Origin: an uncultured Thermodesulfobacteriota bacterium
GTDB lineage: Bacteria; Desulfobacterota; WTBG01; CAIYCZ01
Assembly: GCA_964594075.1 (NCBI GenBank)
Contig: CAZQKW010000009.1
Span: 11,912-75,911 of the forward strand
DNA: 64,000 nt
Direction: 5' to 3'
Shown: piece after piece, positions 6,229 to 46,507 of the stretch
How positions within the stretch are numbered: the first letter of the stretch is position 1
Layout: every line of letters starts with the position of its first letter
Made by a program: the position numbers and the translations under genes
The notes under the pieces: generated by a model
The model's database searches: none
Told to the model about the DNA's origin: nothing
What the model saw: the letters and a program-made list of their open reading frames with translations, nothing else

Positions 6229-6670
6229 ATTATAACATCCTCCCCATATCGCGCTTGTGCCGCGCGTGTTTCCGACTTACTTTCAGCAGCGTTTATGTGC
6301 GTCAATGAAAATGCCCGTAACAACTGGATAAATCAATCCTTCATTACCTGACGGTTGGTGCAGGTTAATATCCCCTCATGGTAGTAGCATACTGCTCAAA
6401 AGCACTAGCATAGGTGTCAATCGCAGATAATGCGGTTTAAACAGAAGCACCTGAATACAGTGTTTTGTTGCTTTGGCTCCCTGTTCTGAAGAAGCAACTT
6501 ATCTGATAGTTTTCTTGAGAAGACTGGGGCCGGGAACTCCTTTCATTGGATTTCCCCTTTTATTAAATTTTAATCCGATAGCTGACCCTTGCCACACAAG
6601 CAGGCAAGGACATCCTTCTCTTTTTCCGAAATAAAGCCCTTTTTATTTCTGTTTCTTGCAATATAAAATT

Positions 6671-7744
6671 TCAGGATAGCGCGTATTCTTCTCTCAGTCG
6701 CAGGGAAACATCGCTTAACATCTGCAGCACCTTCAGTGCGGATTCTTCACTGAGCGACCCCATGCCGCAACTTGGGGTTATAAGGGACTGGCGGATAATT
6801 TTCTCCCGTGCAACACCGGCCGAAGAGAGTTGCTGCACTTCTTCATTCCACAGGTCTAAAAGATTATTAAGGGTTACCCTCTCAATGACCTCTTCTGAAT
6901 GGGTTGGCACAAGGCCCCAGGCAATGGTTCCTCCTCTATTAAGAAAACCAACCAGCTCCTGTTTGAATAACAACACCCGGTCAAAAAAACCATAGGCATC
7001 AAAATTTAAAACATCAATGTCACTCTTCAGCAGTATTGCCCAGTCGGTATTTTCACAGCAGTGGACGCCGGCCCACGCTGTAGTATTATGAATCAGGCTA
7101 ACTACTTCGTTGAGGTCTTTAGTAATATCTTCAGCCTGAACGCCCAGATACGCGCTGGAACCGAACCCGCACAGCGACGGCTCATCCAGAAACATGAGCA
7201 CGGAAACACCGAACTGCTGAAGTTTTTTTATTTGCCACAGCGCTTTCAAGCCGACATGTTTTACGATGATATCCCTTAACTGGGTGTTATAATAGGCATA
7301 TTTACCGTGCTGGTCTTTAAGTCCGGTGGATAGGGTAAAAGGGCCGGTTACCTGACCTTTGACGATTGTGGCGGGCAGATGTTTTTTTTTGGCAAGGAGG
7401 TCAATAAAAGAAAAAAACCCCCGGGCCCGATTCCGTGATATGGCAAAACGCTCTAGAGATGCGGGTGAACCTCCCTCGGTAACCGCCAAATAATCCTCAT
7501 AAAAGCGCAGCACAGCCGGTTCAAATTCCGCGTGTTCGGTATCAAAGTAGCTGCGCTCGGCAGTCTCATATATTTCGGGCAATCCTTCATTATACTGTTC
7601 AAGCATTCCTTCACCCGGAAATTTGGGTAGCTGCACCCATGAAGGGAGCAAGGGAGCATATTTAAATATCAATGCGGTTGCTTCCTCCGGGTCAGTGAGC
7701 GGAAGGCTACCGATAGTGGTTGCGCGCAAATCACCGTTGAACAT
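6671..7744 (-). CDS. cobalamin-independent methionine synthase (MetE C-terminal/UroD-like) family protein
   Basis: MetE-like motif RATTIGSLPLT (cf. TTTIGSFPQT), His-Cys (VHCCEN) and later Cys (PSCGMG) at positions matching MetE zinc ligands. Confidence 0.5.
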   Translation of the reverse strand: MFNGDLRATTIGSLPLTDPEEATALIFKYAPLLPSWVQLPKFPGEGMLEQYNEGLPEIYETAERSYFDTEHAEFEPAVLRFYEDYLAVTEGGSPASLERFAISRNRARGFFSFIDLLAKKKHLPATIVKGQVTGPFTLSTGLKDQHGKYAYYNTQLRDIIVKHVGLKALWQIKKLQQFGVSVLMFLDEPSLCGFGSSAYLGVQAEDITKDLNEVVSLIHNTTAWAGVHCCENTDWAILLKSDIDVLNFDAYGFFDRVLLFKQELVGFLNRGGTIAWGLVPTHSEEVIERVTLNNLLDLWNEEVQQLSSAGVAREKIIRQSLITPSCGMGSLSEESALKVLQMLSDVSLRLREEYALS

Positions 7745-7793
7745 AGCAAGCCCCTTTTTTTATCTTGACTATACACCGGGACTGAAAAAATGC

Positions 7794-7826
7794 AAAAATA
7801 AAAAACTGACAGCGGTTAGCGGTCAG
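7794..7826 (-). terminator. intrinsic terminator of glmS
   Basis: Minus strand CUGACCGC-UAAC-CGCUGUCAG hairpin followed by UUUUUUAUUUUU, ~60 nt after glmS stop. Confidence 0.45.
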
Positions 7827-7883
7827 CTCGAGGTTCGAAAAAGAGATACTTGTAACAGTCCTGGTACGAAAATATTTTTTAAA

Positions 7884-9713
7884 TTATTCAACCGTCACGC
7901 TTTTTGCCAGATTCCGCGGCTGGTCCACATCAGTGCCCTTTATAACTGCCACATGGTAAGCAAAAAGTTGCAGAGGTATAACCATGAGAATGGGGGTTAA
8001 CAGCGGGTTTGTTTCTGGCACAAACAGCACATGGTTGGCCTTCTGGGCTATTTCAGTGTCTCCTTCAGTAGCGACAGCAATAATACGCCCTTTGCGTGAT
8101 TTTACTTCTTCAATATTGCTCATGACTTTTTCATAGTTTGCGCACCGTGGGGCTACCACCACAATCGGCATCTCTTCGTCAATCAAGGCAATTGGACCGT
8201 GTTTCATTTCCCCTGCCGGATAGCCCTCGGCATGAATATAGGAAATTTCTTTCAGTTTCAGCGCTCCTTCCAGCGCAATGGGGTAGTTGATGCCGCGGCC
8301 AAGATATAAAAAATTTCTCGCATCAGCATATATGCGGGCAGTCTTTTCTATTTCTGCACTGGTTTCAAGAACTCGTTCCATAAGATGCGGCAACCGTACC
8401 AGATCTTGAATCAATTGACCTGCACGCTCTTCGGTAACCGTACCCTTGGCTTTGCCTAAAAACAGCGCCATGAGAAAAAGGGCGGTAACCTGGCTGGTAA
8501 ATGCCTTGGTTGAGGCAACACCGATCTCCGGACCGGCATGGGTGTATAATACGCTGTCGCAATCACGGGCAAGGCTGCTCTCTACCACATTGCAGATGGC
8601 AAGCGTCCGGGCGCCTTTTGCTTTTCCTTCTCGCATGGCGGCAAGAGTATCGGCGGTTTCCCCTGACTGGGAGATTAAAATAATGAGCGTCTGATCATCC
8701 ACCAGCGGGTTGCGATAGCGGAACTCTGATCCCAGATCCACTTCCACCGGGATGCGGCTCAGCTCTTCTATCATAAATTTCCCTACCAGACCAGCATAGT
8801 AAGAAGTGCCGCAGGCAATGCAGCAGACGCGCCTAATGGCATGCAGGTCCGGCACCTCCGCTTCAAACCCATTTAAAAAAACCTCACCGGTATCTGCGGA
8901 AATTCTCCCGCGCAGCGTATCCGTAATGGCACGGGGCTGTTCAAAAATTTCCTTTTGCATAAAGTGCTTGAACCCGCCCTTTTCAGCCATGATGGGATCC
9001 CAGGTAACTACCTTAACGGAGCGCTCAATGGGCTCACCGGCAAGATTTTTTATTACCACTGACTCAGCATCCAGCAGCGCCAAGTCGCCATCTTCAAGGA
9101 AAATCATTCTGCGCGTATAGGGCAGGATTGCCGGGACATCTGAGGCAACAAAATTTTCACCGGACCCGAGCCCGATTACCAGCGGGCTTTCATTGCGGGC
9201 GGCCACTAATTGACCGGCCGCAGCTTCATTGAGGACTGCAATTGCGTATGACCCTCTGATGAGGGCGAGTCCCTTGCGCACCGCCTCCTCAAATGAACAA
9301 CCCGCTGCACAGAAGCGCGCAAATAGGTGGGAGAGCACCTCGCTGTCTGTTTCCGATTGAAACTGGTGTCCCTCCTCTTTCAGCATGTTTTTCAACTCAA
9401 GATAATTTTCTATAATGCCGTTATGCACCACGGCTATGCCGTTATAGAAATGAGGATGGGCATTCTCTTCTGAGGGACGGCCATGTGTTGCCCAGCGGGT
9501 ATGACCAATACCGGCACCGCCATTGAAGGTTGCATTGCAGAGAATATTTTCCAGATTACACAATTTTCCCTGGCAGCGGCGGACGGCAATTTTACCATCA
9601 TTAAAAATTGCAATGCCAGCCGAATCATAGCCGCGATATTCCAGCCGCCGGAGTCCTTCCAGCAGCACCGGACAGGTATTTCTGCTGCCAATATAACCAA
9701 CAATTCCACACAT
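7884..9713 (-). CDS. glmS: glutamine--fructose-6-phosphate aminotransferase
   Basis: N-terminal MCGIVGY class-II amidotransferase nucleophile, two SIS domains, C-terminal ...KSVTVE. Confidence 0.9.
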   Translation of the reverse strand: MCGIVGYIGSRNTCPVLLEGLRRLEYRGYDSAGIAIFNDGKIAVRRCQGKLCNLENILCNATFNGGAGIGHTRWATHGRPSEENAHPHFYNGIAVVHNGIIENYLELKNMLKEEGHQFQSETDSEVLSHLFARFCAAGCSFEEAVRKGLALIRGSYAIAVLNEAAAGQLVAARNESPLVIGLGSGENFVASDVPAILPYTRRMIFLEDGDLALLDAESVVIKNLAGEPIERSVKVVTWDPIMAEKGGFKHFMQKEIFEQPRAITDTLRGRISADTGEVFLNGFEAEVPDLHAIRRVCCIACGTSYYAGLVGKFMIEELSRIPVEVDLGSEFRYRNPLVDDQTLIILISQSGETADTLAAMREGKAKGARTLAICNVVESSLARDCDSVLYTHAGPEIGVASTKAFTSQVTALFLMALFLGKAKGTVTEERAGQLIQDLVRLPHLMERVLETSAEIEKTARIYADARNFLYLGRGINYPIALEGALKLKEISYIHAEGYPAGEMKHGPIALIDEEMPIVVVAPRCANYEKVMSNIEEVKSRKGRIIAVATEGDTEIAQKANHVLFVPETNPLLTPILMVIPLQLFAYHVAVIKGTDVDQPRNLAKSVTVE

Positions 9714-34665: not shown

Positions 34666-35349
34666 ATGAATATAACCGCCATTAAGGCAATACTCCGCGA
34701 CACTCTGGGTATAAAAAAAGAAGTTATTGCGTTAAAATGTGCGAAGGAACCTCCAGCCCATATCAACGCTTACGGAGACATGAATAATATCTGCTATATG
34801 ATGGGCGAGGTGCTTGAAGAAAAGAAGACTTTCTATACTACTCTTAAAGACCATGTGTGCACGCTGGGGTGTGCTGCCACCGGACTTGATCCGCGGCTGC
34901 AGAAGATGGATGATGCGGCGCGAAAGGAGACCGAAAACTATCATGTCGCCACGGTAAACATATTTCCAACGCAAGAAATTCAGGCGCGGGCAGAACAAGA
35001 GGCGCAAATGCTCTTCCCCCATTTTAATGAAACCTATGCCGCGGTCATAATGGGGACGCTGGGAGACGTTCTGGAGCCCGATGCGTTGCTGCTGTTCGGC
35101 ACCCCTGAACAGATACATGTGCTGACCCGGGCGTATTGTTATGCAGCGGGAACATTTATCAAGGGCTTTGCGGGAATGGGGGCCTGCAGGATGCTGCTGC
35201 CGTACGCCATCATTAATAAAGAACCAATTTTTACAATCAGTGACCGGGCATGGCGTAGAGCTTTAGCGCTTGCTCCTGAAGAGCTTACCCTTGCAATGCC
35301 ACCAGACAAGCTTCTTATTATGCTGGAGCATCTTGACAAGGTGCGGTAG
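34666..35349 (+). CDS. DUF169-like uncharacterised protein
   Basis: ~227 aa, Cys-containing pattern recalled as resembling DUF169 family; low certainty. Confidence 0.35.
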   Translation: MNITAIKAILRDTLGIKKEVIALKCAKEPPAHINAYGDMNNICYMMGEVLEEKKTFYTTLKDHVCTLGCAATGLDPRLQKMDDAARKETENYHVATVNIFPTQEIQARAEQEAQMLFPHFNETYAAVIMGTLGDVLEPDALLLFGTPEQIHVLTRAYCYAAGTFIKGFAGMGACRMLLPYAIINKEPIFTISDRAWRRALALAPEELTLAMPPDKLLIMLEHLDKVR

Positions 35350-35423: not shown

Positions 35424-35870
35424 TTATTTGGCTTTTGTCATATCTCCCATTATTGCTTTTCCCTGCATATTATATAATGTGCCGCTTTTCAGCCTGCCGC
35501 CTTCATAGACAAGGTCAGCTTTTAATTGTCCATTCAAATAATATTCTTTAGTCACGCCCTCCCGTTTGCCATTCCTGTAATGAATCTCTGACCACACCGT
35601 ACCGTTTTCATAATAGCGCTTAAAGACACCCTCAAGCTTACCATTCACATAATGTGCTTCTGTCTTTATTTTATCGCTTGGGTAAAAGGTTCTTTTTATT
35701 TCCTCATTGTGGTCTTCTGCGGCGCACTTAACGGCCAGCACGCAAAAACAGGACATACATGCCGATACAAACAATAGTTTTGAAAAATGACTGATGCCAG
35801 AGAGAACCACGAGTTTTTGTCCAAGGCGTTTAGAGATGCGCTGGGCGAGAGAAGAGAGGAGGTGGGGCAT
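35424..35870 (-). CDS. MORN-repeat (YwqK-like) secreted protein; start at internal MPHLL...
   Basis: Repeated Y-x-NG-x-x-EG motifs (HYVNGKLEGVFKRYYENGTVWSEIHYRNGKREGVTKEYYLNGQLK); signal-like N-terminus. Confidence 0.5.
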   Translation of the reverse strand: MPHLLSSLAQRISKRLGQKLVVLSGISHFSKLLFVSACMSCFCVLAVKCAAEDHNEEIKRTFYPSDKIKTEAHYVNGKLEGVFKRYYENGTVWSEIHYRNGKREGVTKEYYLNGQLKADLVYEGGRLKSGTLYNMQGKAIMGDMTKAK

Positions 35871-35877
35871 AAGACAA

Positions 35878-36471
35878 TCAGGCCTTTGTTTTTGCAGCGG
35901 GCCGGGGAACGGAAATATGCTTGAACTCTTTGCCGTTTCCGCTGTCCCGATTTTGCAGCATTTGCTCCAGGTCATCAAATTTTTTCATATCAAAAGAATG
36001 TTCTAAATACCCCTGTGCCACAAGCATAACTTTTTTGGAGATTGCAATAAGCTGCGGGGCAAGTTTTGATTGCATAATTATCTGAGTTTTTGGCGGAAGA
36101 AAAGAAACAAGGATTAATACCCCAACACAACAAACCGCCATGCCTTTTAAACCACCGAAGATGATCCCTAATATTCTATCGAGCCACCCCAGCTTGATAC
36201 TTTTCACGACCCTTCGTATTCCTTTGCCCACTAAAAAAAGCGGAATATAAATAGCAAAAAACAGGGCGGCGAAACTGATTAATGTGTTTATCTGCTGATT
36301 ATTAAGGTAGGCAGAAAGTTCCTTGCTTATTTCGTCATGAAACGAAAATGCACCATAAAGGCCCAAGCACAGTGCGGCGAGAGAAAAAGCGGCCCTGATG
36401 AGCCCTTTGCTCAAACCAGACACGGCAAAAATGAGACAGATTAAAAGAATGGCAATATCCAAGGAATTCAT
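35878..36471 (-). CDS. cvpA: CvpA family membrane protein
   Basis: Four TM helices and family-typical N-terminus MNSLDIAILLICLIFAVSGLSKGLIR. Confidence 0.7.
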   Translation of the reverse strand: MNSLDIAILLICLIFAVSGLSKGLIRAAFSLAALCLGLYGAFSFHDEISKELSAYLNNQQINTLISFAALFFAIYIPLFLVGKGIRRVVKSIKLGWLDRILGIIFGGLKGMAVCCVGVLILVSFLPPKTQIIMQSKLAPQLIAISKKVMLVAQGYLEHSFDMKKFDDLEQMLQNRDSGNGKEFKHISVPRPAAKTKA

Positions 36472-36975
36472 ATGCCGATGCAGGGAATAGGAACAGCACC
36501 AGAAATTTAAAAATATTCAAACAGGGTTGAATTAGATTAAAATTACATTAATTGTATTTTTTCATATATTTTTTTTTAGTCAAGATTTATTTTAGTTTCA
36601 GGTTGCTGCTCAAAAATATTGCTTTCAGCACCCGTGAGTTCATTCTCAACATGCTAACTTCACAAAAGTTTTTAGCATCGCCATTAAACTCATATAAATA
36701 AAATGGCAAGGTAAGGTAAAACGCAACGTTTTGAATAGTAAAATTGCTCACAAGTTTATTATATTTTAAAATAAAAAACGAATTTAAAAAATATAAAATA
36801 GCTCTTGCAATTATTTGTCTGAAGTAATATTTTATTCACATTGATCCTGCATTATATTCATTTATTGGTATAAATTTCTTCTGCGGATTGTATAAACGTA
36901 TAGGTATAGAATTTGTTGGTATGGATGCCAGAGGTAAGATACCAATAGGTTTTCAGGTTTCTGCATTCATAAAAG

Positions 36976-37020
36976 CTCCTATCAAATAGTAACTAGTGCA
37001 CGGTAGGAGTTTTTTGTTTT
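36976..37020 (+). terminator. terminator-like hairpin + T-run ~20 nt upstream of the start codon of the 37040 gene (possible attenuator / end of an unannotated sRNA)
   Basis: CTCCTATC-N18-GGTAGGAG (8 bp, one G-U) followed by TTTTTTGTTTT. Confidence 0.4.
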
Positions 37021-37039
37021 AATAGGGAGGGGTTGTCGC

Positions 37040-37420
37040 ATGAAAGAAAGAAAATTATTTTTCAAAATAACTCTGGTGCTTTCATTTATCGCAGGCTTTG
37101 CATTAATGTTATACGATGCCGGAGAACGCTACACGATTTTTAGAGATAGTCTGGCACGGGAAATAGTGATAAAGAAAACCAATAATGATTTTGCAGATAA
37201 CGCTGGCTATATAGATGCAGCAGCATCAGGAAAGAACTCGGCAACGGAGGTCTTGCAGGAACTCTTGAACAAAGAAAAACAGGCAATAGGGTTCATGGAT
37301 GTAATCAAGAATACCAGGTTTGGCATATTTATGGGGACCTTTTTCCTATTGGGTTTTGCCCAGATCTGGATGCTGTATTTTCTCATTATGCTGGGATTAA
37401 CCAGCAAAAAAAGACGCTGA
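37040..37420 (+). CDS. hypothetical small membrane protein
   Basis: GGGAGGGG RBS; N- and C-terminal TM helices; AT-rich codon usage. Confidence 0.4.
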   Translation: MKERKLFFKITLVLSFIAGFALMLYDAGERYTIFRDSLAREIVIKKTNNDFADNAGYIDAAASGKNSATEVLQELLNKEKQAIGFMDVIKNTRFGIFMGTFFLLGFAQIWMLYFLIMLGLTSKKRR

Positions 37421-37442
37421 ACAGCGGGGCGTTGCACTGCCT

Positions 37443-37973
37443 ATGAATCTCAAAATAAAGATTTCAGCACTCAATAGTGAAATATCTCTGGTAGACAACA
37501 AATTTCAACTTTACTTTTTAGGCGAAGAAAGAACGCCGCCCATAAAAGAATTTGAGCGACTAAAGCAGCAGGTGAGTATTCTGCAAAATGAAAAACCCCC
37601 TTCTGTGAGCGGTCAATTTCTCACCAACAGTTTTTTGCGTCGCTTTGCAGCCTATCGAAACAAATGGGAGCGGTTGCTAAGAGATATTGAAGAAGGGAGA
37701 AAAAAGCCCAGCAAGCATTTCTTCGTAAAGGCGCCCCAAAAAGTATTGCCCCCGACCGCGCTGCCAGATGAGGTGGTAAAGGAAATTGATTTGGTGGTTG
37801 CCCAGTTTGCAGAATACACAGAGAAACATTCAGGAAAAAAATTAAATAGAAAAACTTTAAAGCACCAGCTTGCAGAAAAAGCCCGCGATATGTATGTTCA
37901 GTATGGCGACAGCTATTATTTGGATCTTTATTATGATGACACCGGCATTGAAATTCGAACCATTAAACGGTAG
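37443..37973 (+). CDS. hypothetical protein
   Basis: 176-aa ORF, no recognisable motif. Confidence 0.4.
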   Translation: MNLKIKISALNSEISLVDNKFQLYFLGEERTPPIKEFERLKQQVSILQNEKPPSVSGQFLTNSFLRRFAAYRNKWERLLRDIEEGRKKPSKHFFVKAPQKVLPPTALPDEVVKEIDLVVAQFAEYTEKHSGKKLNRKTLKHQLAEKARDMYVQYGDSYYLDLYYDDTGIEIRTIKR

Positions 37974-38002
37974 ATAAGATGCTCATATAATCCAAATGTT
38001 TT

Positions 38003-38428
38003 TTGAGGACAGAGGAACAAGAAATGAAAAAAATCTTATTATTGACCGCAATCGTAATACTCACAGGTTGCAGCACAAAAAGGCCGGTGCTGTATCCCAA
38101 TGAACACCTGCAAAAAGTTGGACAGGCACAGGCGCAGCTTGATATAGAAGAGTGCTGCAGAAGGGCTGATGCATATATTAAGTCAGAGCCCGGCAAAGAA
38201 ATCGCTAAAGATGCAGCTCAAGCAGGGACAGTCGGCGCTGCAACCGGCGCAGCTGTTGGGGCAGTCTATGGAAAGGCAGGGCGGGGCGCTGCCGCAGGTG
38301 CCGCAGGTGGAGCTGTTGCTGCAACAACCAGCGGCATTTTCAGGTCAAAAGAACCAAGCCCGGTTTATCAAAATTTTGTAAATCGCTGTCTGCGCGAAAA
38401 GGGGTATGAACCCATCGGATGGCAATAA
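38003..38428 (+). CDS. glycine-zipper lipoprotein
   Basis: Lipobox LTGC; Gly/Ala zipper GTVGAATGAAVGAVYGKAGRGAAAGAAGGAVAATT. Confidence 0.5.
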   Translation: MRTEEQEMKKILLLTAIVILTGCSTKRPVLYPNEHLQKVGQAQAQLDIEECCRRADAYIKSEPGKEIAKDAAQAGTVGAATGAAVGAVYGKAGRGAAAGAAGGAVAATTSGIFRSKEPSPVYQNFVNRCLREKGYEPIGWQ

Positions 38429-38488
38429 CCGTGTGTTTAACGCGAATATTTGGATCGGAAGACATTACGGCACTGGTTTGCAGTTTAT

Positions 38489-39208
38489 TTACGCGCCGAA
38501 TAAAAATTCCCGCAAATACCGCTCGCTCCATGCTAAGCCAAAATGATGCTGCAATGGCGTACTGCCAGGATCATAGGCAATATAATCCTCCCGATATTGT
38601 TTCAGATATTCATTGCGTCTCGTGCGCAACGCGGCATCCGTAAGCGGCGTAGCTTTGTGAATGCACAAACAAAACACCTGCAGATAATCTTTAAACGCGG
38701 CTTCTATTTGAGGAAGATACTGAGGATCGCACCACCGGTACAGAGCATATCCTGAATCATATTTTTTAGCCCAATCATGGACTTCAGAACGTCCGCCTTC
38801 TGTTTTAGGAATCCATGCGTATTTTTCAGAAATGCTTTTTAGTGGCGCAAGATATTTTGCTGTGTATTCCTTGTCTTTTGCAACAGGATGAAGATCAAGA
38901 ACCGCTATTAAAAATTTGCTTGCGCTGGCAAAGGTAAAGCCAAAAACCGGAAAATCGTAGTCAGTGCCCGGTTGTATGCTGCCAAAATGCACTATCATGG
39001 AACCGGCAAAATGCATGGCACCCATGCGTATGCCGCTTGTTTTGGGACAGGCAAAAAACTCATTTTTAATAAAAATAGTTTTATCTCCAGAATCCGCATA
39101 CTTTACAGCAAACACCGGTTCAAGCGGCAATGGCTTTAACGGAAAAGCTTTCCCCATTTCATCTTTAAGGATCTCATTAAACCGTATTGTAACTGTTTTT
39201 TCTTCCAT
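38489..39208 (-). CDS. ferredoxin-dependent bilin reductase (PcyA/PebA/HY2 family) homolog
   Basis: KTIFIKNEFFACPKTSGIRMGAMHF...FPVFGFTFASASKFLIAVLDLHP aligns with PcyA [20 protein letters not shown]...LPMFGCDLVGGRGQISAAIADLSP; C-terminal HHFGLAWSERYLREFLF matches FDBR motif FG..W.ERY...LF. Confidence 0.6.
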   Translation of the reverse strand: MEEKTVTIRFNEILKDEMGKAFPLKPLPLEPVFAVKYADSGDKTIFIKNEFFACPKTSGIRMGAMHFAGSMIVHFGSIQPGTDYDFPVFGFTFASASKFLIAVLDLHPVAKDKEYTAKYLAPLKSISEKYAWIPKTEGGRSEVHDWAKKYDSGYALYRWCDPQYLPQIEAAFKDYLQVFCLCIHKATPLTDAALRTRRNEYLKQYREDYIAYDPGSTPLQHHFGLAWSERYLREFLFGA

Positions 39209-39685
39209 ACTGATTTCCTTCTTTAAAGACCTGAAATTAATTTAACACCTCTACCATACAACTCTTTTTTTTGTTTAAGCTCGCCTTAACCCGCATTCAA
39301 TGACCTGCCAGCCAGTACCTATCAGATTTCTCCCCTGATATTGTCCCGAGGATAAAAACCGTAGATGCGATCTGTGACATAAGCTCCCTGCGAGGATCAT
39401 TTGACTCGACAAACCCTACCATTCCCGACACGATAAAGCCAGCAATATTTCCCGCCGTTATCTGTATGCCCAGTTTTTCAAAAAGCAAAAAATAAATAAA
39501 TTTTGGGAGAGATCTTTTAAAACCCGCTGTGTAACGCAGACCCGTTTCCCTGTGACTTCACATGAACAGAGATACATGATAATTAAGAAGTGCAGGTCTG
39601 AAAAGGATTGGGTGCACTGACAGACCGCCATAACTAAGAAGATGAATATGTTGTGAATATCGAAATGCCTGATGGGACATACTGA

Positions 39686-40282
39686 ATGGATACGCTTGCT
39701 CATGGACTCTGGGCCACTGCTGCTGTTAAAACAAACAATATGTTTTTTCGTATAAAAATCCGCACCGCATGGTTTGTCTTTTGGGGCGTGTTGCCGGATT
39801 TATTTTCTTTTACACCAGTAGTGGTGTGGCTGTTATGGCAGGTTATTGTGCAGGGCATTCCTTTTTCAGAAGTGCCGAGGCCAGAATTGCTGCCCCCTGA
39901 AATTCGAAAGACTGTTCCCGTGTTTCGGCTGACCAATGGCCTGTACCATCTTAGCCATAGTCTGATAATTTTTACGGCAATATTTTTGCTGATATGGGCT
40001 ATTCGCTACTATTGTTTAAAGTCTCTGCGAGCGACACAGATAAGCCACACCGAGCTAAATCGGCTGCGGCCTCCCTGGGAACTCAGCGGATGGATACTGC
40101 ACATCCTGATTGACATACCAACGCATACCCGAGGGTTGTATCCCACGCCGTTTCTCTGGCCGCTTTCAGATTTTACCGTTGACGGCATCTCCTGGGGCAG
40201 ACCGTGGTTCCTGGCGATAAATTATTCCTCTCTGCTTATGGTGTTTTTGCTGCTGCGGATGAAATCCATGAAAAAACAATGA
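39686..40282 (+). CDS. YdjM/DUF457-like membrane-bound metal-dependent hydrolase
   Basis: LPDLFSF, YHLSHSLIIF and LHILIDIPTHTRGLYPTPFLWPL segments parallel E. coli YdjM (LPDIDHP, GFTHSLLAVF, LSHILADMLTPAGVPLLWP). Confidence 0.5.
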   Translation: MDTLAHGLWATAAVKTNNMFFRIKIRTAWFVFWGVLPDLFSFTPVVVWLLWQVIVQGIPFSEVPRPELLPPEIRKTVPVFRLTNGLYHLSHSLIIFTAIFLLIWAIRYYCLKSLRATQISHTELNRLRPPWELSGWILHILIDIPTHTRGLYPTPFLWPLSDFTVDGISWGRPWFLAINYSSLLMVFLLLRMKSMKKQ

Positions 40283-40327
40283 ACGGGCATTGAGAAGCGG
40301 GGACGATATACGCCGGACAGGTAATTC

Positions 40328-41248
40328 TTAGCCTACTATATCCCGAAGCGCCATCTCTGCATCCGGGAAGTTAAAGCTAAACCCTGCTTCAAGCAGGCGT
40401 TTGGGCTGCACCCGTTGGCCTGCCAGAATCAACTCTTCTGCCATCTGGCCAAACATGATGCGCAGGACAAAACCAGGAACTGACAACCACGAAGGCCTGC
40501 CCATAGCAGACCCGACCGCACGGAAAAAATCCCGAGCGCGCAGAGGATGCGGTGCACAGAGATTAAACGGGCCTTCAAGCCTTTCCTGTTCAAGCAGAAA
40601 ACAGACCGCTTCCACCTCATCTTTTATATGAATCCAGGAAAGCCACTGTTGTCCATTTCCCATGTGGCCACCCATAAACAGGCGAAACGGCAGCATCACC
40701 CGCGAGAGAAATCCGCCATCCCGGCCAAGCACAATACCGGTCCTTATAATCACATGACGCACGCCCTGATCTGCGACAATTTTTGTTGATGCCTCCCACT
40801 GTTGGGCAACGTCTGCTAAAAAACCGCTTCCAGGGAGTGAATTTTCATTTACCACTTCATCGCCGCGATTTCCGTAATACCCGATACCTGATGCTTGAAT
40901 AACCACCCGGGGCTTATGGTGTGCCTGCTCAACCGCTGCAACTATTGCTTTTCCAGCATCAAGCCTGCTCTGAAGTATTTTTTCTTTTTGCGCCTGTGTC
41001 CATCTTCCTGCAGCTATATTTTCTCCGGTCAAATTTATAATTCCCCGTGCACCGTCCGCATATTGAGACCAGCCCGCAGTGCTTCGCGCATCCCAGCCGA
41101 CCACGGTGACGCGATCTTCCCATGCCACGGATGCTGTCGCAGGATTTCGGGAAAGAGCCACTACCGCGTAGCCGCGTGCCATTAATACCCTGCAGAGCAT
41201 TCTCCCGATAAAACCGGTTGCACCACTCACAATAACAGTTTGCGCCAT
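40328..41248 (-). CDS. TIGR01777 (YfcH-like) NAD-dependent epimerase family protein
   Basis: VSGATGFIG Rossmann motif, ~306 aa with DUF1731-like C-terminus; GGAGC RBS. Confidence 0.7.
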   Translation of the reverse strand: MAQTVIVSGATGFIGRMLCRVLMARGYAVVALSRNPATASVAWEDRVTVVGWDARSTAGWSQYADGARGIINLTGENIAAGRWTQAQKEKILQSRLDAGKAIVAAVEQAHHKPRVVIQASGIGYYGNRGDEVVNENSLPGSGFLADVAQQWEASTKIVADQGVRHVIIRTGIVLGRDGGFLSRVMLPFRLFMGGHMGNGQQWLSWIHIKDEVEAVCFLLEQERLEGPFNLCAPHPLRARDFFRAVGSAMGRPSWLSVPGFVLRIMFGQMAEELILAGQRVQPKRLLEAGFSFNFPDAEMALRDIVG

Positions 41249-46409: not shown

Positions 46410-46507
46410 GGAAGTGGACAGGGCACTGGTGGCCCTCCTGGACTTCAAATCCAGTGGGAGGCGTGAGCAACGTCTCCGGTGGGTTCGATTCCCATGCACT
46501 TCCGCCA
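46410..46507 (+). tRNA. selC: tRNA-Sec (anticodon TCA), CCA encoded
   Basis: 98 nt; anticodon arm CTGGA-CTTCAAA-TCCAG (UCA); long variable arm GGAGGCG-TGAGCAA-CGTCTCC; T-arm GGTTCGATTCC; G discriminator + CCA; closely parallels E. coli selC (GGAAG...CTTCCGCCA); TATAAT ~30 nt upstream. Confidence 0.85.

Follow-up and report, generated by a model that had tools for sequence, protein, structure and literature searches.

The 64,000-nt stretch analysed here (hereafter the window), which comes from an uncultured Thermodesulfobacteriota bacterium, carries between cvpA and a TIGR01777 gene (the segment studied, positions 36472-40327) a gene homologous to the ferredoxin-dependent bilin reductases (FDBRs), enzymes of pigment synthesis that are known from oxygenic phototrophs and their phages and, since 2023, from some heterotrophs as well. 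The analyses revealed a predicted FDBR-fold enzyme that is intact, is under selection and keeps the canonical acidic pair, and the clade to which it belongs is, as judged from its sequences, an uncharacterised and anaerobe-restricted branch of a family that is elsewhere associated with the pigments of photosynthesis. We favour, as rather probable, a reading in which the segment was inherited, consists of two units and contains an FDBR that handles an imported or adventitious bilin. The first unit would be a three-gene envelope operon driven from a promoter-like element inside an AT-rich gap, and the second, unrelated to it, the remnant of a five-gene module. In the ancestral module, a YdjM-like gene would have been read one way, and genes for a PIN-PhoH2 protein, an anion-type major facilitator superfamily (MFS) transporter, a rhodanese and the FDBR the other way; about 3.1 kb of it would have been deleted in the window lineage, leaving 45 MFS codons as well as the FDBR and the membrane protein, both intact and subject to purifying selection.

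The FDBR homolog and its clade

The first-pass annotation of this DNA, which was made from the sequence alone, had called the product a bilin-reductase homolog, and this was borne out by a full-length match to the Fe_bilin_red family (PF05996; E 1.3e-32, 113.7 bits, cutoff 31), in which residues 14-237 aligned to profile positions 4-227 of 228, and by a confidently predicted fold. Among the NCBIfam models, the best was that of PebA (NF009720) with 90.8 bits, followed by the PcyA and PebB models with approximately 58 bits, and comparison with PDB sequences gave 52.6 bits for GtPEBB, 50.8 for PebA and 39 for PcyA. The AlphaFold2 (AF2) model of the protein (pLDDT 92.6, pTM 0.91) shows the FDBR-type alpha/beta/alpha sandwich with a central antiparallel sheet. 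Foldseek comparison of this model yielded TM-scores of 0.78-0.86 to all solved FDBRs, with a probability of 1.00 (PebA 2X9O 0.80, GtPEBB 0.82, and tomato HY2 0.85-0.86), as compared to 0.73-0.78 for RCCR and 0.5-0.6 for coproporphyrinogen oxidase (CPO). A look-up of the exact sequence found it not on record, and a tblastn search of a phage database with the FDBR returned no match.

Alignment with characterised enzymes placed D105 (in the motif VLDLHP), on the central strand, at the proton-donating Asp105 of PcyA and PebS, and D213 (in the motif YDPGS), on the C-terminal helix, at Asp206 of PebS, Asp205 of PebA and Asp256 of HY2. Both residues were invariant in 97 of 97 clade members, and the column of PcyA His88 was occupied by His in 69 of these, by Asn in 15, by Gln in nine and by Asp in four. 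The modelled enzyme looks catalytically competent.

Database searches recovered a clade of about 106 clusters (90% level) with 51-95% identity and a length of 238-242 aa throughout; the next score after 182 bits is 131, the level at which cyanobacterial PebA (30-33% identity) starts. The clade was present in 13 loci, in approximately 10 metagenome-assembled genomes (MAGs), of 185,579 species-representative genomes; its members are labelled only as Thermodesulfobacteriota, delta proteobacterium or Proteobacteria and are annotated by NCBI as 'hypothetical protein'. In the literature searched, no link was found between bilin reductases and Desulfobacterota/Thermodesulfobacteriota. One source reports two newly detected, uncharacterised clades of uncertain placement and a query named 'Unknown D6734_12105', any of which might be the present clade (PMC13193486).

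With 24-29% identity to each of PebA, PebB, HY2 and PcyA, the clade is roughly equidistant from the named families, and it is marked by the invariant, clade-specific motifs CPKT, EGGR and LYRWC. It was monophyletic and lay outside PebA+(PebB,HY2), with 88% bootstrap, in a rough neighbour-joining tree that is not to be read as a placement (175 columns, one PcyA sequence as root, built without pre-PcyA, RCCR and CPO sequences). The window FDBR resembles the PebA/PebS/PUBS lineage in its best curated model, its fold and both catalytic Asp residues, and the nearest sequences outside the clade are those of cyanobacterial PebA in pebAB operons. However, its score is far under the PebA family cutoff of 263, no second FDBR adjoins the window gene, whereas the cyanobacterial matches all have pebB downstream, and the clade differs further in its non-photosynthetic, anaerobic hosts, its motifs and its position in the rough tree. 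As regards the PebB/HY2 lineage, GtPEBB and tomato HY2 were among the top PDB matches and the equivalent of HY2 Asp256 is invariant, but the clade is 25-28% identical to these proteins, is not nested within them in the same tree and has neither a plastid nor a cyanobacterial context.

The pre-PcyA enzymes (pre-1 to pre-3), whose phylogenetic position is basal to PcyA (PMC10151467), are comparable in being FDBR-family enzymes of bacteria that are not oxygenic phototrophs, including 'delta-proteobacterial' lineages and mostly from MAGs (PMC10151467, PMC13446030), and in having the Asp105 equivalent. They differ from the present clade in several respects: the latter scores PcyA models (58 bits) below PebA, its hosts belong to Thermodesulfobacteriota, whereas pre-PcyA is from Myxococcota and other phyla, His predominates in the PcyA-His88 column in place of the Asn or Thr of pre-PcyA, and its loci have none of the neighbours that define pre-PcyA.

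Gene neighbourhoods and the proposed role of the FDBR

In heterotrophs, pre-PcyA genes sit in clusters with heme oxygenase and globin genes, the pre-1/3 cluster consisting of a heme oxygenase, an Fe-S protein, two V4R proteins and one or more bilin-binding globins (BBAG), and the pre-2 cluster of a B12-binding protein and a globin (PMC10151467). Neighbourhood analysis covered about 15 distinct clade loci (+/-8-10 kb each) and the 64-kb window. In the roughly 15 loci, no heme oxygenase, V4R, BBAG/globin, B12-binder-plus-globin, phytochrome or GAF gene was found. The recurrent neighbours of the FDBR were genes for aldehyde:ferredoxin oxidoreductase (AFOR), arranged in four or more distinct ways, together with small 4Fe-4S ferredoxins, HdrD-like CCG proteins, DUF169 proteins, MFS transporters and YdjM or YdjM-like membrane proteins, while oxygen-stress genes (catalase, Fur-family, ODP, hemerythrin and flavodoxins) were seen once.

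Most likely, reduced ferredoxin donates the electrons with which the FDBR reduces one or two double bonds in a biliverdin-like linear tetrapyrrole, a ferredoxin-dependent bilin reduction for which the frequent ferredoxin and AFOR neighbours would provide circumstantial support. These anaerobes would have an ample supply of reduced ferredoxin, which the AFOR enzymes encoded nearby may regenerate. The substrate would be an imported or adventitiously formed bilin, processed for catabolism or detoxification; this is favoured over chromophore synthesis because no gene for a heme oxygenase or an acceptor lies nearby and because the ancestral operon included an anion-type MFS transporter.

The alternative that the FDBR makes a reduced bilin chromophore, such as phycoerythrobilin or phytochromobilin, for a photoreceptor or a bilin-binding globin, in which case the partner genes would be encoded elsewhere in the genome, is in line with the retention of both catalytic Asp residues and with the fact that every characterised FDBR yields a chromophore precursor. 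Moreover, such pathways are possible in heterotrophs, as pre-PcyA proteins illustrate (PMC10151467). We nevertheless regard a chromophore role as quite unlikely, given that the genes defining the pre-PcyA clusters (PMC10151467), as well as phytochrome and GAF genes, were missing near the FDBR in all of the loci, and that the hosts look strictly anaerobic (AFOR, Hdr/Dsr-type complexes and MvhD), a setting in which an O2-dependent heme oxygenase would be unexpected.

Also rather improbable is activity on another tetrapyrrole, which could be a chlorophyll catabolite, as in RCCR, an anaerobilin produced by radical-SAM cleavage of heme or even one of the cyclic tetrapyrroles. The fold is common to RCCR and CPO, and active-site variants of one pre-PcyA gained affinity for cyclic tetrapyrroles (PMC13446030); in addition, CPO-like and B12/radical-SAM genes lie near the FDBR in one locus (L157), and MFS transporters fused to a PCP_red domain in two others (L155 and L158). 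Each of these gene associations, however, occurs in just one or two loci, whereas the Asp pair typical of biliverdin-reducing FDBRs is invariant throughout the clade, and the enzyme has its nearer matches, in sequence and structure alike, among true FDBRs and not in RCCR or CPO.

The CPO-like gene of L157 (6088-6873) is a divergent relative of the O2-dependent enzyme (111 bits, cutoff 297) located 3.5-5 kb downstream of the clade FDBR, beside a B12-binding radical-SAM gene (7745-9253) and with ferredoxin and AFOR genes between these two and the FDBR. As CPO shares the FDBR fold, this locus holds two members of one fold superfamily in a tetrapyrrole-flavoured anaerobe neighbourhood. The MFS fusions (L155, 14947-15995; L158, 10695-12263) are MamH/MamZ-like and carry at their C-terminus PCP_red, the C-terminal domain of protochlorophyllide-reductase subunit B; they were found 2-7 kb from clade FDBRs in two unrelated contexts and are possible tetrapyrrole transporters. 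DUF169 genes occur 3-9 kb from clade FDBRs in four contexts (window, 34666-35349, plus strand; L001; L006; L011), which may be coincidence. Directly upstream of the FDBR in three related loci, L001 (9082-9858), L011 and L018, lies a gene for a PNPOx-fold protein, which has no homolog in the window and, given its signal peptide and its heme-c motif (CxxCH), is probably periplasmic; with these features, its interpretation as a HugZ-type heme oxygenase was not supported.

History and other genes of the segment

The segment and its flanks comprise the following features:

35878..36471, minus strand: cvpA (colicin V production family), left flank; PF02674, E 2.9e-30; syntenic in L089, L003, L004 and L091
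36472..37039: AT-rich intergenic gap, 568 nt; GC 0.301, the lowest intergenic value of the window
37040..37420, plus strand: gene of a 126-aa membrane protein, first of the three-gene operon; no family matches
37443..37973, plus strand: gene of a 176-aa protein; undescribed family
38003..38428 (likely true start ATG 38024), plus strand: gene of a glycine-zipper lipoprotein; lipobox and sub-threshold profile matches
38489..39208, minus strand: FDBR homolog (PF05996), converging on the three-gene operon
39209..39685: deletion scar and divergent promoter region, 477 nt; from comparison with L091, L145 and L009
39339..39473, minus strand: relic of an ACS-family MFS transporter, codons 377-421; from tblastn and blastn against L091
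39686..40282, plus strand: gene of a 198-aa polytopic membrane protein, weak relative of YdjM and the Zn-dependent phospholipase C clan, divergent from the FDBR
40328..41248, minus strand: TIGR01777 (YfcH-type) short-chain dehydrogenase/reductase-type epimerase with DUF1731, right flank; TIGR01777 E 4e-98, 328.6 bits, cutoff 207

All five open reading frames (ORFs) between CvpA and the TIGR01777 protein were confirmed at the positions first assigned to them, and the view that they have no housekeeping role was supported. Relatives of the window, taken as contigs that encode homologs of the FDBR and the TIGR01777 protein, were recovered at four divergence levels, with flank-gene amino acid identities to the window of 97-99% (L089), 90-98% (L003), 62-93% (L004/L005) and 67-86% (L090-L093/L145). 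At each level, cvpA and the TIGR01777 gene enclosed the same genes in an unchanged order. The synonymous divergence (dS) of the five genes equalled that of the flanks in each comparison (about 0.1, 0.6-1.0 and 0.9-2.2), and their ratios of nonsynonymous to synonymous divergence (dN/dS) of 0.02-0.22 indicated purifying selection. A search of JGI metagenomes with the TIGR01777 protein showed that beyond these relatives the identity falls from 72 to 57% and synteny is wholly lost (L094).

The compositional claims of the first-pass annotation were confirmed in part. Its AT-rich codon usage was visible as a modestly low GC at third codon positions in four of the five genes (z-scores -1.0, -1.4, -1.5, -2.2 and +0.5), but the codon-usage log-likelihood under the pooled usage of the window was typical (z -1.2 to +1.9). 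The first two genes had a low overall GC (z -2.8 and -2.3). The composition profile that it had suggested as a check did contain a tetranucleotide outlier (z about 3), although this was confined to 3-kb intervals containing the intergenic gap and the codon usage of the genes was not unusual. No repeats flanked the segment, the repeats in the window being at most 21 nt long.

A recent horizontal acquisition of the whole 3.9-kb segment, as an islet between cvpA and the TIGR01777 gene, might be read from the AT-rich gap, the low GC of the first two genes, the lack of housekeeping roles, the phylogenetic patchiness of the FDBR clade and the other context of the FDBR module in L009, but it is very unlikely in view of a context shared without change by every relative down to about 70% amino acid identity, the agreement of dS with the flanks, the typical codon usage, the absence of a border tRNA, integrase, transposase or direct repeats, and the conservation of the AT-rich, promoter-like gap itself. 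Here the first-pass annotation, which had proposed horizontally acquired DNA, was largely contradicted as far as a recent event is concerned; it had held that the same gene set in an identical context across the clade, with uniform composition, would speak against its proposal, and these genes and this context were essentially what was found, though the composition was non-uniform. The segment resembles a classical genomic island in its position between conserved genes, its lower GC, its accessory genes of unknown role and its gene decay. It differs in lacking an integrase, tRNA and repeats; moreover, the whole clade keeps it at the same site, it has diverged in step with its flanks, and its codon usage is typical. 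By the sequence comparisons it is an old, vertically inherited, lineage-specific and partly decayed stretch of the core chromosome of a sediment anaerobe and, as an islet, ordinary. Ancient acquisition of the FDBR module is plausible because the module occurs in another context (L009) and the clade in few of the species genomes (about 10 of 185,579).

The decay that had been suspected from a transporter-like fragment at 39297-39488 was verified by comparison with L091. At the corresponding place that contig has an intact MFS gene of 434 aa, and window positions 39339-39473 (minus strand) align to its codons 377-421 (56% identity over 45 aa, E 8e-10, by tblastn; 83% over 70 nt by blastn). Between the membrane-protein and FDBR genes, L091 and L145 carry genes for a PIN-PhoH2 ATPase (451 aa), the MFS transporter (434 aa) and a small rhodanese, all on the FDBR strand, an interval of about 3.6 kb in L091, L145 and L009. 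The intact transporter (PF07690, E 6e-67) falls into the TIGR00893/00894 subfamilies and is of the anion:cation-symporter type. Relative to the sister lineage L091/L145, the window has lost PIN-PhoH2, most of the MFS gene and the rhodanese. Since the relic is visible in L004 too, the approximately 3.1 kb are taken to have disappeared in a single event, in the ancestor that the window, L003 and L004 lineages share.

The module in its complete, five-gene form was found with different flanks in an unrelated genome, the GTDB MAG 'uncultured delta proteobacterium MFD04716.bin.2.301' (L009), and thus the FDBR module and the three-gene operon would be independent units that are adjacent here by chance. 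A second copy of the module in the same MAG (L010) is frameshifted, which may reflect sequencing errors because the assembly is long-read. This MAG has three FDBR copies (L009, L010 and L020), two of them in PhoH2-MFS-rhodanese modules; the FDBR of L020, a paralog with 56% identity, precedes genes for a 170-aa membrane protein and for a bona fide YdjM.

The gene of the 198-aa membrane protein accompanies the FDBR module in two different contexts (L091-type and L009), and its dN/dS was 0.14-0.22. Its former description as YdjM-like holds weakly: one of five orthologs matched PF04307 (YdjM) at E 8e-6, and there were weak matches to the clan-mate Zn_dep_PLPC, but the window protein had no Pfam match at E<=0.01 and hhalign against true YdjM gave a probability of 0.4%.

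The gap next to cvpA, rightly described as strongly AT-rich in the earlier annotation, had the lowest GC (0.301) of the 14 intergenic regions of at least 150 nt, the other 13 having 0.37-0.48 and the genes of the window averaging 0.484 +/- 0.033. It was present in every relative recovered (GC 0.29-0.35). A promoter-like core at about 36755-36835, formed by an A/T tract, TTGCAA (36805-36810), 17 nt and TATTTT (36828-36833), was still alignable where the rest of the gap had fallen to about 60% identity, and this conservation points to a regulatory region and not an insertion scar. A terminator-like hairpin with a T-run (about 36974-37020) lies some 140 nt after the core and some 20 nt before the ribosome-binding site of the 126-aa gene. 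Its 12-bp stem was found in the minimum-free-energy and centroid folds alike, with a whole-leader z-score of just -0.9, and independent sequences were too few for covariation. This element could be a transcription attenuator or leader, or a small RNA could end there. In L004, which represents the 82%-identity lineage, the gap (6432-7291) is 859 nt long as compared to 568, with about 290 nt extra and an annotated 38-aa ORF, and it has no terminator-like hairpin.

For the three-gene operon, an envelope role is proposed from the hydrophobic segments and the lipobox encoded by the outer two genes and from the tight spacing of the three. The 126-aa protein has hydrophobic N- and C-terminal segments, with two predicted transmembrane segments, and gave no matches in Pfam, NCBIfam or PADLOC searches; its orthologs were 72-98% identical (dN/dS 0.09-0.17). 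The lipoprotein has a likely true start at ATG 38024 (MKKILLLTAIVILTGC), which gives a protein of 134 aa, as called in L003 and L004 (dN/dS 0.02-0.21). Of its earlier designation as a glycine-zipper lipoprotein, the lipoprotein part was upheld by an LPAM lipobox (LTGC), whereas the Gly-zipper_OmpA and YMGG profiles matched below threshold (E 2e-4 and 1e-3). Neither of these two proteins has an informative homolog.

The 176-aa protein (dN/dS 0.07-0.09) is soluble and, in its AF2 model (pLDDT 68), mostly helical with a C-terminal beta-hairpin, and it had no match in Pfam, NCBIfam or PADLOC and no PDB fold match at E<0.1. A profile search returned 400 representatives at E<=1e-3, 23 of them at <=1e-10, and a Pfam domain was found in none of the 10 homologs scanned. 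Residues 8-90, approximately, make up an N-terminal domain common to hundreds of proteins of 100-500 aa without Pfam annotation, which appears to be an undescribed and fairly widespread domain. A distant homolog sits alone among housekeeping genes, unlinked to any FDBR. The possibility that the 176-aa protein is a BBAG was rejected on account of this homolog, the low-confidence model of helices and a beta-hairpin, and the lack of a fold or family match.

The remaining window is core chromosome, with Lpt and Kds genes and those of GlmU, BamD, RecA/RecX, CinA, ribonucleotide reductase, GlnA, CarAB, PurF and an MvhD-type protein, and no heme oxygenase, phytochrome, globin, integrase or transposase was present among its gene families. 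The sole tRNA of the window, a tRNA-Sec (anticodon TCA; 46410-46507, plus strand), is 6 kb from the segment, with a class-Ib (Trp/Tyr) tRNA synthetase gene directly downstream of it, an arrangement that fits a selenoprotein-using anaerobe. On the left, the longest ORFs of a MORN-repeat gene (35424-35978, minus strand) and cvpA (35878-36471, minus strand) overlap by 100 nt; the true start of the MORN gene is probably downstream because its relatives are annotated with a shorter protein (148-170 aa). A PADLOC defence-system search of the five segment proteins and an Rfam scan of 36300-40400 at E<=1 gave no matches.

Several observations weigh against the favoured reading of an inherited segment with a bilin-handling FDBR. 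An empty site, with cvpA abutting the TIGR01777 gene, was not found among the relatives recovered. The promoter-like element is a consensus-level match at 8 of 12 positions, under the threshold of the scan itself. Other parts of the genome could encode a heme oxygenase, the survey having covered 8-10 kb on either side of each locus and the window. The window FDBR is without its former operon partners and has a unique His at position 66, where 75 of 97 clade members have Asp and 14 have Asn, the residue found in its nearest relative (L003); its dN/dS (0.05-0.21) was 0.18-0.21 within the deletion lineage as compared to 0.05 against L091. His66 and the raised dN/dS possibly reflect constraint that was somewhat relaxed once the MFS, PhoH2 and rhodanese partners had been lost. 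Because of this loss and the unique His66, an L091-type ortholog would be a better experimental representative than the window FDBR.

Meaning of the clade for the FDBR family

The analyses bring to light a compact and well-conserved FDBR clade that is confined to sulfate-reducer-type anaerobes and has a neighbourhood of ferredoxin-linked redox enzymes and transporters. A 'pre-PebA / archae-FDBR' has been explicitly sought by FDBR specialists (PMC13446030, Discussion). It is unlikely, though arguable, that the clade represents such an enzyme, which would be an early-branching FDBR of strict anaerobes without heme oxygenase, acting on a linear tetrapyrrole that is imported or made independently of O2 and using ferredoxin reduced by tungsten aldehyde oxidoreductases. 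If the clade is active on bilins, it would imply anaerobic bilin turnover in sediments and would offer a specific candidate for early lineages of the family. Should the pre-PebA interpretation be true, part of the bilin-reductase family would have arisen in anaerobic tetrapyrrole catabolism and not in pigment synthesis.

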